A stretch of DNA of 64,000 nt from Escherichia coli. GTDB lineage: Bacteria; Pseudomonadota; Gammaproteobacteria; Enterobacterales; Enterobacteriaceae. Shown here in pieces: positions 18,975 through 32,331 of the stretch. Made by a program: the position numbers and the translations under genes. The notes under the pieces were generated by a model, which searched no databases, was not told where the DNA came from, and saw only the letters and a list, made by a program, of their open reading frames with translations. Location of the stretch: assembly GCF_003334765.1 (NCBI RefSeq), contig NZ_QOWT01000017.1. The stretch is one strand, 5' to 3'. How positions within the stretch are numbered: the first letter of the stretch is position 1; each line of letters begins with the position of its first letter.

Positions 18975-19790
18975 ATGGCAACAACACAACAATCTGGATT
19001 TGCACCTGCTGCATCGCCTCTCGCTTCGACCATCGTTCAGACCCCGGACGACGCGATTGTGGCGGGCTTCACCTCTATCCCTTCACAAGGGGATAACATG
19101 CCTGCTTACCATGCCAGACCAAAGCAAAGCGATGGCCCACTGCCAGTGGTCATTGTAGTGCAGGAAATTTTTGGCGTGCATGAACATATCCGCGACATTT
19201 GTCGCCGTCTGGCGCTGGAGGGGTATCTGGCTATCGCACCTGAACTTTACTTCCGCGAAGGCGATCCGAATGATTTTGCCGATATCCCCACGTTGCTTAG
19301 CGGTCTGGTAGCAAAAGTGCCTGACTCGCAGGTGCTGGCCGATCTCGATCATGTCGCCAGTTGGGCTTCCCGCAACGGCGGCGATGTTCATCGTTTAATG
19401 ATCACCGGATTCTGCTGGGGTGGACGTATCACCTGGCTGTATGCCGCGCATAATCCACAGCTAAAAGCCGCAGTGGCGTGGTACGGCAAACTGACGGGCG
19501 ACAAGTCGCTGAATTCACCGAAACAACCTGTTGATATCGCAACCGATCTTAACGCGCCGATTCTCGGCTTATATGGTGGTCAGGATAACAGCATTCCGCA
19601 GGAGAGCGTTGAAACCATGCGCCAGGCGCTGCGGGCTGCTAATGCGAAAGCAGAGATTATCGTGTACCCGGACGCCGGGCATGCATTCAACGCTGATTAT
19701 CGCCCGAGCTATCATGCCGCATCTGCAGAAGATGGCTGGCAGCGTATGCTGGAATGGTTTAAGCAGTATGGTGGGAAGAAGTCGCTGTAA
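18975..19790 (+). CDS. dlhH: Putative dienelactone hydrolase-family carboxymethylenebutenolidase
   Basis: 271 aa from [14 protein letters not shown] with GGAG RBS; alpha/beta-hydrolase features. Confidence 0.85.
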
Positions 19791-19795
19791 TGAGA

Positions 19796-19826
19796 AAAGA
19801 CCGGGTGGTATTACCACCCGGTTTGG
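19796..19826. terminator. Bidirectional terminator between convergent dlhH and metE
   Basis: ACCGGGTGGTATTACCACCCGGT hairpin flanked by AAAAGA on one side and TTTGGATTTT on the other. Confidence 0.7.
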
Positions 19827-19829
19827 ATT

Positions 19830-22091
19830 TTACCCCCGACGCAAGTTCTGCGCCGCCTGCACCATGTTCGCCAGTGCCGCGCGGGTTTCTGGCCAGCCGC
19901 GCGTTTTCAGGCCACAGTCCGGGTTGACCCACAGGCGCTCTGCCGGAATGCGTTTTGCCGCTTTCTTCAGCAAGGCTTCAATCCATTCCACGCTCGGTAC
20001 GTTTGGCGAGTGAATGTCATAGACGCCAGGACCGATTTCATTTGGATAATCAAACTCTTCAAACGACTCCAGCAACTCCATGTCGGAACGCGAGGTTTCG
20101 ATGGTGATGACGTCTGCGTCCAGCGCCGCAATCGAATCCATGATGTCGTTGAACTCGCAATAACACATGTGAGTGTGGATTTGTGTGTCATCTTTCGCCA
20201 CGGCGGCGTTGATACGGAAGGCCTCTACGCCCCACTGGAGATACGCATCCCAGTCGCTACGACGCAGCGGTAAACCTTCGCGCAGCGCCGGTTCGTCAAT
20301 CTGGATGATGCCAATTCCAGCGGCTTCCAGATCGGCCACTTCATCACGCAGCGCCAGCGCAATCTGTTTGGCGATGGTTTCACGGCTGACATCTTCACGC
20401 GGGAACGACCAGCAGAGTATGGTCACCGGCCCCGTCAGCATCCCTTTCACCGGTTTGTCGGTCAGCGATTGCGCATACTTCGCCCACTCCACGGTAATCG
20501 GTGCCGGGCGGCTAATGTCACCAATGACAATCGGTGGCTTCACGCAGCGGGAACCGTAGCTCTGTACCCAACCGTTTTGCGTAAAGACAAATCCGTCGAG
20601 GTGCTCGCCAAAGTATTCCACCATGTCATTACGCTCGGCCTCGCCATGTACCAGCACATCCAGTCCCAAACGTTCCTGCTCAACAATGGCCTGCTTGATA
20701 TGTTCCGCAATGCCCGTGCGGTAGTTGTTGGCGTCGAGATTGCCCTTTTTGAAATCCAGACGCAGGGTACGAATTTCCGTGGTTTGCGGGAAGGAACCAA
20801 TCGTGGTGGTCGGCCACGCTGGCAGTTTAAAACGCGCACGCTGGGCTTCAGCACGCACTTCATAGACATTCGCACGCTGGCTGTCCTGGGCGGTGATCGC
20901 CGCCAGACGCTTTTCTACCGCCGGATTATGTACGCGGGTAGAGTGACGACGTGCCTGAATCGGGGCGCTCCACTCTGCCAGAGCTGCCGTGTCACCACTG
21001 TTCAGCGCATCGCGCAGCAGTGCCAGTTCATGGCATTTTTGTAGGGCGAAGGCAAACCAGCTTTTCACTTCTGCATCAAGACGCGTTTCCACGCTCAGGT
21101 CGATGGGGCTGTGCAGCAACGAGCAGGAAGATGCCACCCACAAATCACGTTTGCCGACAATGTCCTTAATTTGCGCATATTTCTCGGTAAGATCGGCGCG
21201 CCAGACGTTACGACCATTGATCAGACCCGCAGACAGCAACCAGTCAGAAGGCAGGCGCTTGTGCAGTTCAGCAACGTCATCTTTACCATGTACGAGGTCA
21301 ACATGCAGACCCTGAACAGGCAGCGCAGTAATCGTGTCGAGATTTGGCGTTACGCCTTCAAAATAGGTGGTCAGCAGCAGTTTCACCTGTCCCTGGAGCG
21401 CGTCGTAAGCGGGTTTGTATGCGTCCAGCCACGCCTGTGGTAGTTCCAGTACCAGCGCGGGTTCATCAATCTGTACCCACTCGATGCCGCGTTTCGCCAG
21501 TTCTGCCAGCACTTGCTGATAAACCGGCAGAATGTCGTTCAGCAGGCTCAGGCGGTCAAATTGTTCACCTTTCACTTTCCCCAGCCACAGCCAGGTAACC
21601 GGCCCCAGCAGCACAGGTTTCACCTTGTGGCCCAGCGCCAGCGCCTCGTCCACTTCGTCCAGCAGCTGCGTCCAGGTCAGTTTGAACTGTTGGCCTTTAA
21701 CGAACTCCGGCACCATGTAGTGATAGTTGGTGTTAAACCATTTGGTCATTTCCGCTGCCGCCGCAGGTTCGCCAGTCGGCGCACGTCCACGACCAATACG
21801 GAACAGGGTGTCGATATCTACCGAACCATCTTTGTTCTGATGACGCGCCGGAACGTTACCCAGCAGCAGACTGGTGGTCAGTACATGATCGTACCAGGCA
21901 AAATCGCCCACCGGCAGCAGGTCGATACCCGCTTGCTTTTGTTGATCCCAGTGACGAGCACGCAATTCACGCCCTACCGCCAGCAGTTCTTCACGCGTGG
22001 AGTTCCCCGCCCAATAACTTTCTTGCGCTTTTTTCAGCTCGCGACGCAGGCCAACGCGAGGGAAACCGAGGGTGTGATTCAATATTGTCAT
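19830..22091 (-). CDS. metE: Cobalamin-independent methionine synthase
   Basis: 753-aa ORF, recognised MetE. Confidence 0.96.
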
Positions 22092-22240
22092 TTTTTCTTC
22101 CTCTAATTATATGTAAATCCTATGGATTTTGAATTTAGGGAAGGCGGCAAGTTTATTCATCCCCGGGAGCTTACTGAAGTAAGTGACCGGGGTGGAGAAA
22201 CGCAGCCAACGCACCATAAATTTAAAAGACGAAGGATTTT

Positions 22241-22264
22241 AGCCGTCCAGATGTTTACACATCC
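22241..22264. promoter_or_regulatory. Candidate MetJ operator (three tandem degenerate met boxes) in the metE-metR divergent promoter region
   Basis: Tandem 8-mers AGCCGTCC AGATGTTT ACACATCC, each 5-6/8 matches to AGACGTCT. Confidence 0.45.
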
Positions 22265-22327
22265 ATAATTGGCGGTTACTGTATATTCCTCAAGCGCAAA
22301 TTATTCATGCCGAAGTGAAGGACTTTC

Positions 22328-23281
22328 ATGATCGAAGTAAAACACCTGAAAACGCTACAAGCGTTGCGGAACTGCGGCTCGCTCGCAGCCGCTGCGGCGA
22401 CGTTGCATCAGACGCAATCCGCCCTGTCTCACCAGTTTAGCGATCTGGAACAACGCCTTGGCTTCCGGCTATTTGTGCGTAAGAGCCAGCCGCTACGCTT
22501 TACACCGCAGGGAGAAATCCTGTTGCAACTGGCAAACCAGGTACTGCCGCAAATTAGCCAGGCCCTGCAAGCCTGCAATGAACCGCAGCAGACGCGTCTG
22601 CGCATTGCCATTGAGTGCCATAGCTGTATTCAGTGGCTGACACCCGCGTTAGAAAATTTCCATAAGAACTGGCCGCAGGTAGAGATGGATTTTAAATCGG
22701 GCGTGACATTTGACCCGCAGCCCGCCTTGCAACAGGGAGAGCTGGATCTGGTAATGACGTCCGATATTCTGCCGCGCAGTGGCCTGCATTATTCGCCGAT
22801 GTTCGACTATGAAGTGCGTCTGGTGTTAGCACCTGACCATCCACTGGCGGCGAAAACGCGAATTACACCGGAAGATCTCGCCAGCGAGACGCTATTAATT
22901 TATCCGGTGCAGCGTAGTCGACTGGATGTCTGGCGGCATTTTCTTCAGCCGGCAGGCGTCAGCCCGTCACTGAAAAGCGTCGATAACACCTTATTGTTGA
23001 TTCAGATGGTTGCCGCGCGGATGGGTATTGCCGCGCTACCGCATTGGGTAGTAGAGAGTTTTGAGCGCCAGGGTCTGGTGGTGACCAAAACCCTGGGCGA
23101 AGGCTTGTGGAGCCGACTGTACGCCGCCGTGCGCGATGGCGAGCAGCGTCAGCCAGTTACGGAAGCGTTTATTCGCTCAGCGCGCAATCACGCCTGCGAT
23201 CATCTGCCGTTTGTGAAGAGCGCGGAGCGACCCACTTACGATGCACCCACAGTGAGGCCAGGATCACCAGCGCGCCTGTAA
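22328..23281 (+). CDS. metR: LysR-family transcriptional activator MetR
   Basis: 317-aa ORF with N-terminal HTH, divergent from metE. Confidence 0.95.
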
Positions 23282-24068
23282 TAAACGTTGGCCAGTGCGG
23301 CTGTTGGTGCCAGATAGCCAGGTTTACCAGCAGCCCTGCCGGAACGTGCATATTATTCATAATGCCCAGCGTTCCGGCGTCCACCTGCGTCGCGCCGTAG
23401 TTCCACATAAAGTAGCCAATCCCGGAAGCCACCACGCCAAGAAACACCAGAATGCCCCATTGCAGCGTGGTTTGCGGCATTTTCTGCGCATTTCCCAGCA
23501 AGAACCATGCAATCACTGCCACCAGAAACGCGCCAAGATAGAACCACGCAAAGGCGTTATGCTGTGGCATCGGGCGAGTTTCCATCAGGCGTTTGTAACC
23601 CACCATGCCAATGGCAAAAGTGATATTGGAGAGTTGCACCAGCAGCAAGCCAGTCCAGAAATGGTCGGTGACCTGATCATAGCGAATAATCCCGGCACCA
23701 ATCACCGCCAGCAAGGCGCTAAAGGCATAGCCCCAGCGCAGACGGCGCTTACTCATGATGTCATAAATCAGCGTGATGTAGAGCGGCGTCAGCACGGTGA
23801 ACAGCAGCAGCTCGGAAACCGTCAGGTAGAGATAAGCGCGGAAACTCAGCATATACATCACGCCAAGCTGCATCGCGCCCACCAGCATATACAGGCCGAC
23901 CGTTTTCAGGCTATTGCCACGGGTACGCAGAAACGGCAGAAAAACGAGTGCCGCCAGGCCAACGCGCACCAGCACCGCAAAATAGCTATCGACGTGCCCC
24001 GCAAGGTACTCGCCATAAAAGCTAAAGGAGAAGGCCCACAGAATCGTGGTGATGATAAGTAGCGCCAC
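23169..24068 (-). CDS. yigM: EamA/DMT-family inner membrane transporter (biotin transporter YigM/BioP)
   Basis: 299-aa 10-TM ORF; 3' end overlaps metR 3' end by 113 nt on the opposite strand. Confidence 0.85.
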
Positions 24069-24143
24069 AATGGAAAACTCTTTGATTAACGGGTATCCAT
24101 TGTAGCGAAGTATCAGGTTGACAACTGACCAAATAAAGAACGA

Positions 24144-24944
24144 TTACGATAAATAGAGTTTACGCAGATAATGCGGCACCGCGTCGTCGGCATTAGTACC
24201 AATCACTTCCAGCTCGGGATGAAGGTCTTTCAGACGCTGGTGCGCACTGCCCATAATGCAGCCTTTCCCCGCCATCGACAGCATTTCGGCGTCGTTCATC
24301 CCGTCACCAAACGCAATACAATCCTTCAGGCTGTAGCCCAGTTTCTTCGCCACCGCTTCCAGCGCATGGCCTTTTGAAACGCCGCCCGCCATCACTTCCA
24401 GACAGGTTAAGGTAGAGAAACTGACGTTGACGCGATCGCCCCAACGAGCGTTAATCGCCTGCTCCAGCGGCAGCAGTTGTTCATGGGAATCGCAGGTGAA
24501 GAACACTTTGCTGACGCCTTCCGGCTCCAGTAATCCAGGCTCATACAGCGCATATTGGAACACCGCTTCTTTAAAAAAGCGCATCTCTTCCGGGCGATGG
24601 CGATTCATAAACCATTCGTCGTCGCGATAAACGTTAGTAATGATGTCCGGATTGTCGTTGACTACGCCAAACAGATCGCTGGCAATGTCGCGATCCAGGT
24701 TATGAGCAAAAATCAGATTACCATCCAGATCGTGAACGCGCGCACCATTGGAGGTAATCATGTAAGACTTAATCTCCAGATTATCGCGAATTTGCCCCAC
24801 ATCAACGTGGTGACGACCGGTCGCAAACACAAAGTTGATGCCGCGCGCGGTGAGCAGCTTCAGAGTTTCTTTGGCGTAAGGGGATAACGTATGGTCGGGA
24901 GAAAGTAACGTGCCATCTAAATCAGACGCAACAACCTGGTACAT
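24144..24944 (-). CDS. yigL: HAD-family sugar/pyridoxal phosphate phosphatase
   Basis: 266 aa from MYQVVASDLDGTLL (HAD motif I); track ORF extended 42 codons upstream. Confidence 0.88.
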   Translation of the reverse strand: MYQVVASDLDGTLLSPDHTLSPYAKETLKLLTARGINFVFATGRHHVDVGQIRDNLEIKSYMITSNGARVHDLDGNLIFAHNLDRDIASDLFGVVNDNPDIITNVYRDDEWFMNRHRPEEMRFFKEAVFQYALYEPGLLEPEGVSKVFFTCDSHEQLLPLEQAINARWGDRVNVSFSTLTCLEVMAGGVSKGHALEAVAKKLGYSLKDCIAFGDGMNDAEMLSMAGKGCIMGSAHQRLKDLHPELEVIGTNADDAVPHYLRKLYLS

Positions 24945-31950: not shown

Positions 31951-32331
31951 ATGTTACGTATATTTATCCCAACATCTAACGGTAAGATTTCCAGACGTCG
32001 TTATATATTTTCATTTATTTTAATAAATTTCATTTTTGCCTTTCTTATTATCTTTTTTAACGATGGAGAAGCAGGCTTTCTTGTTATAGTCTCTACCATC
32101 GTACTCCATTATCTCGTCATCAACATGAATTGCCAGCGACTCCGTGATAGTGGTTTCATCTATATAAAAACTTATGTTTTTGGTACATTAGCAGTATATA
32201 TCATCTCTATCATCACAATGATAGCCGAAGATTTTGCCTGTTCAGGCAATGGTTCGATGATTTTTTTGATTTGTTATTTTTCCACTTTCAGTATGCTAAT
32301 GCTTGCACCTACTGATTCATCAAAACAATAG
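31951..32331 (+). CDS. yigF: Small inner membrane protein YigF (DUF805-like)
   Basis: 126 aa from [18 protein letters not shown]; markedly AT-rich coding sequence; track ORF extended 20 codons. Confidence 0.8.

Follow-up and report, generated by a model that had tools for sequence, protein, structure and literature searches.

The metE-metR locus, its predicted promoters and MetR sites

The window, by which we mean the whole 64,000-nucleotide stretch of Escherichia coli DNA that was analysed, carries metE and metR on opposite strands. Positions 19144-24144 match 4011000-4016000 of MG1655 (NC_000913.3) in reverse orientation with 0 mismatches over 5001 bp, coordinates being converted by window x = 4035144 - MG1655 coordinate. 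The genes and the control elements between them are as follows.

19830-22091, minus strand: metE (b3829), cobalamin-independent methionine synthase, a 753-aa ORF corresponding to MG1655 4013053-4015314
22328-23281, plus strand: metR (b3828), LysR-type activator, a 317-aa ORF named after the MG1655 annotation
22241-22264, serving both genes: MetJ operator of three tandem met boxes, AGCCGTCC (22241-48), AGATGTTT (22249-56) and ACACATCC (22257-64)
22315-22329: MetR site 1 (IR1, strong), with the perfect dyad TGAAGGACTTTCA at 22316-22328, overlapping the metR ATG, centre 22322
22294-22308: MetR site 2 (IR2, weaker), GCGCAAATTATTCAT, reading ATGAATAATTTGCGC on the metE strand, centre 22301
22259-22260, minus strand: predicted metE transcription start, worked out from the published positions of the MetR repeats (-63 and -41, PMC5002191) and their centres 22322 and 22301
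22265-22293, minus strand: predicted metE promoter, -10 AATTAT (22270-22265), 17-bp spacer, -35 TTGAGG (22293-22288)
22282-22287, plus strand: candidate metR -10 TATATT, in the conserved block TACTGTATATTCCTCAAGCGCAA, with a start predicted near 22294

The spacer is bounded by the metE start codon (CAT at 22089-22091, minus strand) and the metR ATG at 22328, and thus occupies 22092-22327 (236 bp). The original prediction, made from the letters alone, had described it as a metE-metR divergent control region with degenerate tandem met boxes; the description is correct to the base, locus and boxes having been rightly named. With a 901-bp query across the locus, matches are found in 5426/5426 complete E. 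coli genomes, whose annotations name the genes metE and metR. The operator is already known, this being the textbook control region of E. coli K-12, and nothing here is new in kind. In order to gauge conservation we extracted the spacers at metR from 80 species-representative Enterobacteriaceae genomes, and in their alignment the last 90 bp ahead of the metR ATG (22238-22327) contain no indel in any of the 80 species.

The predicted metE start would give a leader of ∼169 nt, and the metE promoter upstream of it agrees with consensus at 8/12 positions, so that it is probably weak and activator-dependent. Each of its two hexamers is conserved in at least 95% of the 80 species, with variation in the spacer between them at 22270-22277. 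This stretch (TGGCGGTT versus GTAAAGGT and others) is the only poorly conserved one of an otherwise near-invariant 90-bp block, consistent with its being a promoter spacer. The metR start predicted near 22294 overlaps the metE promoter on the opposite strand. In the layout that we infer the two promoters overlap back to back, with the MetJ boxes at about -5 to +20 of the predicted metE start and about -53 to -30 of the predicted metR start; the boxes would therefore sit over the metE start and over the upstream/-35 part of the metR promoter, and the MetR sites over metR positions -10 to about +35. Such a layout fits statements in the literature that the metE and metR promoters overlap (PMC5002191), that they have a common MetJ operator and that MetR represses its own gene.

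A consensus promoter scan with a 9/12 cut-off called neither the metE nor the metR promoter and returned only an AT-rich site inside the leader. That site, at 22106-22133 on the minus strand (TTCAAA-16 nt-TATAAT, a strong σ70-like match of 10/12), lies just upstream of metE in an arm of the ERIC repeat described below; a start from it would fall within the metE Shine-Dalgarno sequence, and it is possibly a cryptic promoter borne by the repeat or simply an AT-rich chance match. Of the genome-wide start-site supplements consulted, that of PMC3415461 contains no metE or metR start and that of PMC2760140 only an internal +208 site together with a MetJ-matrix scan.

The MetR sites at the metR-proximal end of the spacer were not among the elements flagged by the original prediction. 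The dyad TGAA-N5-TTCA occurs only twice in the 64 kb, once at 22316-22328, and the sequence GTGAAGGACTTTC at site 1 is identical in 74/80 species, while the half-site TTCAT/ATGAA of site 2 is conserved in 78/80. Two 15-bp inverted repeats ATGAA-N5-TTCAT are given at -63 and -41 of the E. coli metE start in PMC5002191, which summarises DNase footprinting and mutation work in Salmonella; it is in Salmonella, and not in E. coli, that the two sites were experimentally shown. As our numbering of the metE start rests on these published repeat positions, the agreement at -63 and -41 is circular with respect to PMC5002191.

The ERIC repeat and the alleles of the metE leader

The original prediction had also singled out a separate short palindrome as a plausible site of the regulatory pair. 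The palindrome, CTTACTGAAGTAAG, is real, though it had been placed 9 bp off: it lies at 22170-22183, and positions 22179-22192 read GTAAGTGACCGGGG. It belongs to a much larger element of the leader, listed here with the translation-initiation region downstream.

22114-22241: a 128-bp ERIC/IRU repeat with TA at each end, within the 5' leader of metE at about +20 to +147 of the predicted start
22161-22192: ERIC core hairpin CCCCGGGAGCTTACTGAAGTAAGTGACCGGGG, a 32-bp inverted repeat with the palindrome at its tip
22079-22108, minus strand: metE translation-initiation region, with the Shine-Dalgarno sequence AGAGGAAG at 22097-22104 and the FnrS pairing site at -17..+13

Set against its reverse complement, the 128-bp element shows 67% identity over positions 2-126, and TA is found at both ends (22114-15 and 22240-41). 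With the ERIC-PCR primer sequences taken from PMC6196677, ERIC2 matches at 17/22 positions (22177-22198) and the complement of ERIC1R at 16/22 (22155-22176); the two matches are adjacent, correctly oriented and the best in the window. At E<=1e-5 a 136-bp query matches 13,706 places, spread over 4678 E. coli genomes with a median of 3 and up to 9 in each. Other copies, of 74-84% identity and with an identical or nearly identical core, sit in the hpaC-btsT and hsdM-hsdR intervals. The last base of the repeat is the first base of met box 1, so that the ERIC abuts this box without altering it. ERIC repeats are described as 127 bp long with terminal inverted repeats and TA ends (PMC2229807, PMC3184786), and since the element matches ERIC/IRU in size, whole-length palindromy, TA ends, location and strain polymorphism we take the palindrome to be the ERIC apex. 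A text search of the literature for ERIC together with metE matched only ERIC-PCR typing papers. The original ERIC/IRU papers presumably listed a metE-region copy.

The polymorphism was followed with a 441-bp query across the spacer in the 5426 complete E. coli genomes, where the long, K-12-type form was told apart from a short form that matches as two pieces spanning 322 bp. The long form, with the ERIC, is found in 2100/5426 genomes and the short form, with no ERIC and a spacer of 117 bp, in 3326/5426 (61%). Loci L002 and L084 are short E. coli alleles. Among the 80 species the spacer lengths are likewise bimodal, at 114-123 bp in 39 and mostly 228-262 bp in 41 (one of 186 bp); Citrobacter, Enterobacter, Kluyvera, Kosakonia and Escherichia each include both classes, and the extra DNA is the hairpin-bearing block. 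The alleles also differ over ∼22-29 bp next to the metE ATG, in the stretch separating it from met box 1, Shine-Dalgarno sequence included, and at metE codons 3-4. The short allele is therefore not a clean empty site, so that the history is more complex than one insertion; the TA at both ends may be a target duplication.

Three leader haplotypes can be recognised, short (∼117 bp), K-12-type ERIC (∼235 bp) and Salmonella-type ERIC (∼248 bp), with a patchy distribution across genera; within Citrobacter, close relatives differ in leader class, three classes being represented among them. The classes are shared among Escherichia, Citrobacter, Enterobacter, Kluyvera and Kosakonia without regard to how the species are related. 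Several species of the Citrobacter freundii complex have a leader with 95-99% identity to the K-12-type leader of E. coli, as against 80-83% for the first 600 bp of metR and 86-89% for the first 600 bp of metE. When E. coli is compared with Citrobacter (loci L020, L015, L033 and L041) in 60-bp windows, identity is 97-100% over ∼22028-22327 and 73-93% outside it; the high-identity segment consists of the K-12-type leader and the first ∼60 bp of metE, and the flanking genes are at ∼77-90%. These comparisons point to exchange of a ∼300-bp segment between genera, for which the conserved promoter block and the 5' end of metE may have served as recombination anchors, the alternative being unusual constraint.

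Such identity bears on a reading of the leader that is compatible with our assignment of the DNA sites, namely that the ERIC hairpin is a working cis-acting RNA element that tunes metE mRNA stability, translation or access of a small RNA, long and short leaders then being functionally different alleles. We regard this reading as possible though on balance doubtful. The repeat would lie wholly inside the predicted 169-nt leader, and RNAalifold, applied to 37 distinct long leaders, folds it into a long hairpin of 28 pairs, of which 10 are maintained by changes on both sides; the core pairs are kept in 35-37 of the 37 sequences. However, covariation is expected in any palindromic repeat family and hence alone is no sign of selection at the metE locus; it could reflect two ERIC subtypes, and the pair-keeping double changes fall mostly between K-12-type and Salmonella-type arms. 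The fold of the full leader is, moreover, not unusually stable (z = -1.5). The high identity of the K-12-type leader in several Citrobacter, set against 80-88% for flanking coding DNA, and the effect of ERICs on the stability of co-transcribed mRNA in Yersinia, which depends on orientation and is linked to RNase E (De Gregorio 2005, via PMC2229807 and PMC3184786), both speak for an RNA function. Against it, the element can be done without: 61% of complete E. coli genomes and 39/80 species lack it and keep the same promoter and operator.

The remaining argument for an RNA element comes from the translation-initiation region, where long and short alleles have different Shine-Dalgarno regions. 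The sequence AATTAGAGGAAGAAAAAATGACAATATTGAA is given as an fnrS-metE target in the supplement to PMC3415461, and this FnrS site falls within the stretch of leader and initial codons where the alleles are not alike (22079-22108, minus strand, versus L084:372-442). The predicted duplex with the FnrS seed amounts to -16.9 kcal/mol for the long allele and -12.6 kcal/mol for the short, both better than for shuffled targets; these are seed-region values, as full-length duplex prediction gave over-extended and uninformative duplexes. Because the site lies in the allele-variable part and the seed energies differ, control of metE by FnrS might be allele-dependent.

The leader in the window also contains a 17-codon upstream ORF (MNKLAAFPKFKIHRIYI*; 22107-22160, minus strand), which opens right behind the stem of the ERIC core and whose stop lies 15 nt short of the metE AUG. 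In the majority of long leaders of the K-12 and Salmonella types an AUG is found at the same position, with an ORF ending 13-16 nt ahead of metE; it is absent from the leaders of Kluyvera, some Kosakonia and Phytobacter. A Shine-Dalgarno sequence for the ORF at 22160-22107 was not evident.

A stronger claim, that the 5' UTR dimorphism is selectively maintained and spread by recombination and alters post-transcriptional control of metE (stability, translation, FnrS sensitivity) rather than being a neutral passenger, seems to us improbable. The metE product is one of the most abundant enzymes of E. coli, and the leader alleles would bear on whether ERIC repeats affect the expression of a very highly expressed gene; as they are nearly identical between genera, they would also bear on the movement of small non-coding segments among enterobacterial species.

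Far less probable is that the palindrome at 22170-22183, or the hairpin at 22161-22192 that contains it, is a protein-binding operator or an attenuator specific to metE/metR control, a reading to which we give very little credence. What recommends it is a 14-bp palindrome, perfect bar two central bases, in a 32-bp inverted repeat between two regulated genes. Yet the same core recurs in the unrelated hpaC-btsT and hsdM-hsdR intergenic regions, most E. coli metE loci do not have it, and its predicted place is ∼70-100 nt into the metE transcript, over 100 bp away from the metR promoter. A terminator scan found nothing there, and as no T-run follows the hairpin on either strand a terminator or attenuator is rejected. 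The known MetR and MetJ motifs lie elsewhere in the spacer, the very outcome that the original prediction had named as counting against its sites, so that the palindrome does not stand as a MetR or a MetJ site, nor, as an ERIC core in the leader that so many genomes and species lack, as a regulatory site of the promoter pair. The lesson is that, within a regulatory spacer, a palindrome that catches the eye may belong to a generic ERIC repeat and not to a binding site.

The MetJ operator

The three contiguous 8-mers lie at 22241-22264 exactly as predicted, with 2, 2 and 3 mismatches to the met box AGACGTCT (6/8, 6/8 and 5/8 matches). In order to score them independently of the site itself we built a leave-one-out matrix from the eight other MG1655 met operators of PMC3228920 Table S1, with metE/metR left out. 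A scan with a MetJ matrix had been proposed as a check on the boxes, and with this one 22241-22264 ranks 1 of 63,977 three-box positions, at 20.55 bits; the next independent three-box site in the 64-kb window reaches 15.6 bits. A score of 20.55 bits is matched or exceeded anywhere in only 1/100 shuffles of the whole window, and simple arithmetic gives an expectation of ∼1e-4 per 236 bp for three in-register 8-mers with <=2, 2 and 3 mismatches. The met-box array inside the spacer is thus far beyond chance. The boxes had been called only weakly matched, which undersells them: at 7.0 bits per box they are mid-range among natural E. coli operators (metK 5.0, metF 6.2, metA 6.8, metB/J 7.8), a weak match to consensus being the normal state of met operators. 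The lesson in this case is that natural MetJ operators may seem weak by consensus matching and yet be highly significant as tandem arrays.

Alignment with published operators establishes identity over all 24 bp with the metR/metE metbox site of Augustus & Spicer 2011 (PMC3228920 Table S1). The site is entered there, as three boxes of 21.08 bits, for b3828 metR with a gap of 63 nt to the start codon and, in reverse complement, for b3829 metE with a gap of 149 nt; the gaps equal 22265-22327 and 22092-22240 in the window. An independent scan with the RegulonDB matrix in the supplement to PMC2760140 arrives at the same bases. Mapped MetJ sites elsewhere in the spacer, which would have spoken against the assignment of the boxes, did not come to light. 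On the experimental side, PMC3228920 marks metE and metR of the Enterobacterales as tested for repression, and PMC10505187 reports that metE promoter activity rises on metJ knock-down and that metE is MetR-activated in minimal media.

The boxes are found in identical register in 80/80 Enterobacteriaceae spacers, long and short alleles alike, and published tables have three boxes in register in 122/122 Enterobacterales. Among the 80 species box 1 reads AGCCGTCC, AGACGTCC, AGCCATCC, GGACGTCC, GGACGTCT or AGACGTCT itself, box 2 AGATGTTT or GGATGTTT, and box 3 ACACATCC, ACACATCT, ACACTTCC, ACACTTCT or, in two species, ACACCGCT. Those substitutions that fall at positions 1, 3, 5 and 8 of the boxes mostly toggle toward or away from AGACGTCT.

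That the 8-mers resemble met boxes by chance only, with MetJ acting elsewhere or indirectly, can practically be dismissed, for although each box alone has 2-3 mismatches and single 8-mers with <=3 mismatches are common (two more lie in the same spacer), the site is first in the window with a score that shuffling hardly ever reaches, its register is kept in 80 species, it is identical to a curated published site on which an independent matrix also lands, and the spacer holds no other three-box candidate.

Two further candidates were rejected. The flanking 8-mer AGGATTTT, considered as a fourth met box, contributes about -1.2 bits. A second metbox-like stretch at 31985-32008 (AGATTTCC AGACGTCG TTATATAT), by some measures the second-best independent one outside the metE-metR spacer, scores 14.2 bits, lies within the shuffle range and inside the yigG CDS, and is put down to chance.

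A probable two-part spacer and its relation to known systems

We conclude, with a probability of about 0.9, that the spacer is in two parts, control DNA next to metR and a metE leader that is mostly an ERIC passenger outside the MetJ/MetR switch. The control part would be the metR-proximal ∼90 bp (22238-22327), with two overlapping back-to-back promoters, a shared MetJ operator and two MetR sites; the remaining ∼146 bp (22092-22237) would be the metE 5' leader, made up mostly of the 128-bp repeat. MetJ dimers carrying S-adenosylmethionine would occupy the boxes cooperatively and so turn off both promoters, and MetR with homocysteine, at its two sites upstream of the metE -35, would activate the weak metE promoter and repress metR itself. 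The identity of the locus, the site match, its statistical excess, conservation, and the membership and polymorphism of the repeat were computed here. The action of MetJ and MetR in the model is taken from the literature, and the exact starts and promoter hexamers are predictions. For annotation, the 236-bp spacer should be regarded as control DNA in its metR-proximal ∼90 bp only, the rest being an optional leader that most E. coli strains do without. As a calibration, a reading of raw sequence placed a genuine, experimentally studied operator to the exact base.

With the MetJ operators of the E. coli and Salmonella met regulon the site agrees in having three contiguous 8-bp repeats related to the met box, at a promoter and common to two divergent genes. 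From the catalogued b3828/b3829 operator (PMC3228920) it does not differ, as it is the reference example itself; the metB/J, metF and metA operators have four boxes each in the same table, versus three at metE-metR. Among sites for MetR, a LysR-type regulator with consensus TGAA-N5-TTCA, the spacer has a perfect dyad and, 21 bp away, a weaker second site, with centres near -63 and -41 as in PMC5002191, from which that numbering derives; two-site occupancy is experimental in Salmonella and, according to PMC5002191, not in E. coli.

ERIC elements (also IRU or RU-1) are MITE-like, imperfect palindromes of ∼127 bp from Enterobacteriaceae, and the metE copy, at 128 bp, is palindromic over its whole length and has TA ends, with a core that reads ...GGAGCTTAC..AAGTAAGTGAC.GGGGTG.... 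It is ERIC-like as well in its position, intergenic and, given the predicted start, transcribed, in having several diverged copies per genome and in its presence/absence polymorphism among strains. From the ERIC primer consensus, which it matches at 16-17 of 22 positions, it is diverged, and the outer arms of the K-12 copy differ from those of the Salmonella-type copy at the same locus.

Two Rfam families match the element over their full length below threshold, RF02766 (Ysr49, Yersinia) at 22113-22287 and RF02818 (V_AS5, Vibrio) at 22118-22236 (plus strand). The scores of 27.7 bits (Ysr49) and 26.7 bits (V_AS5) are far below the gathering scores of 95 and 96, so that the ERIC element is not a member of either family. 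The consensus sequences of Ysr49 and V_AS5 have ERIC-like arms and a core, as in the metE-leader element, which suggests that both 'sRNA' families were built from ERIC-type repeats.
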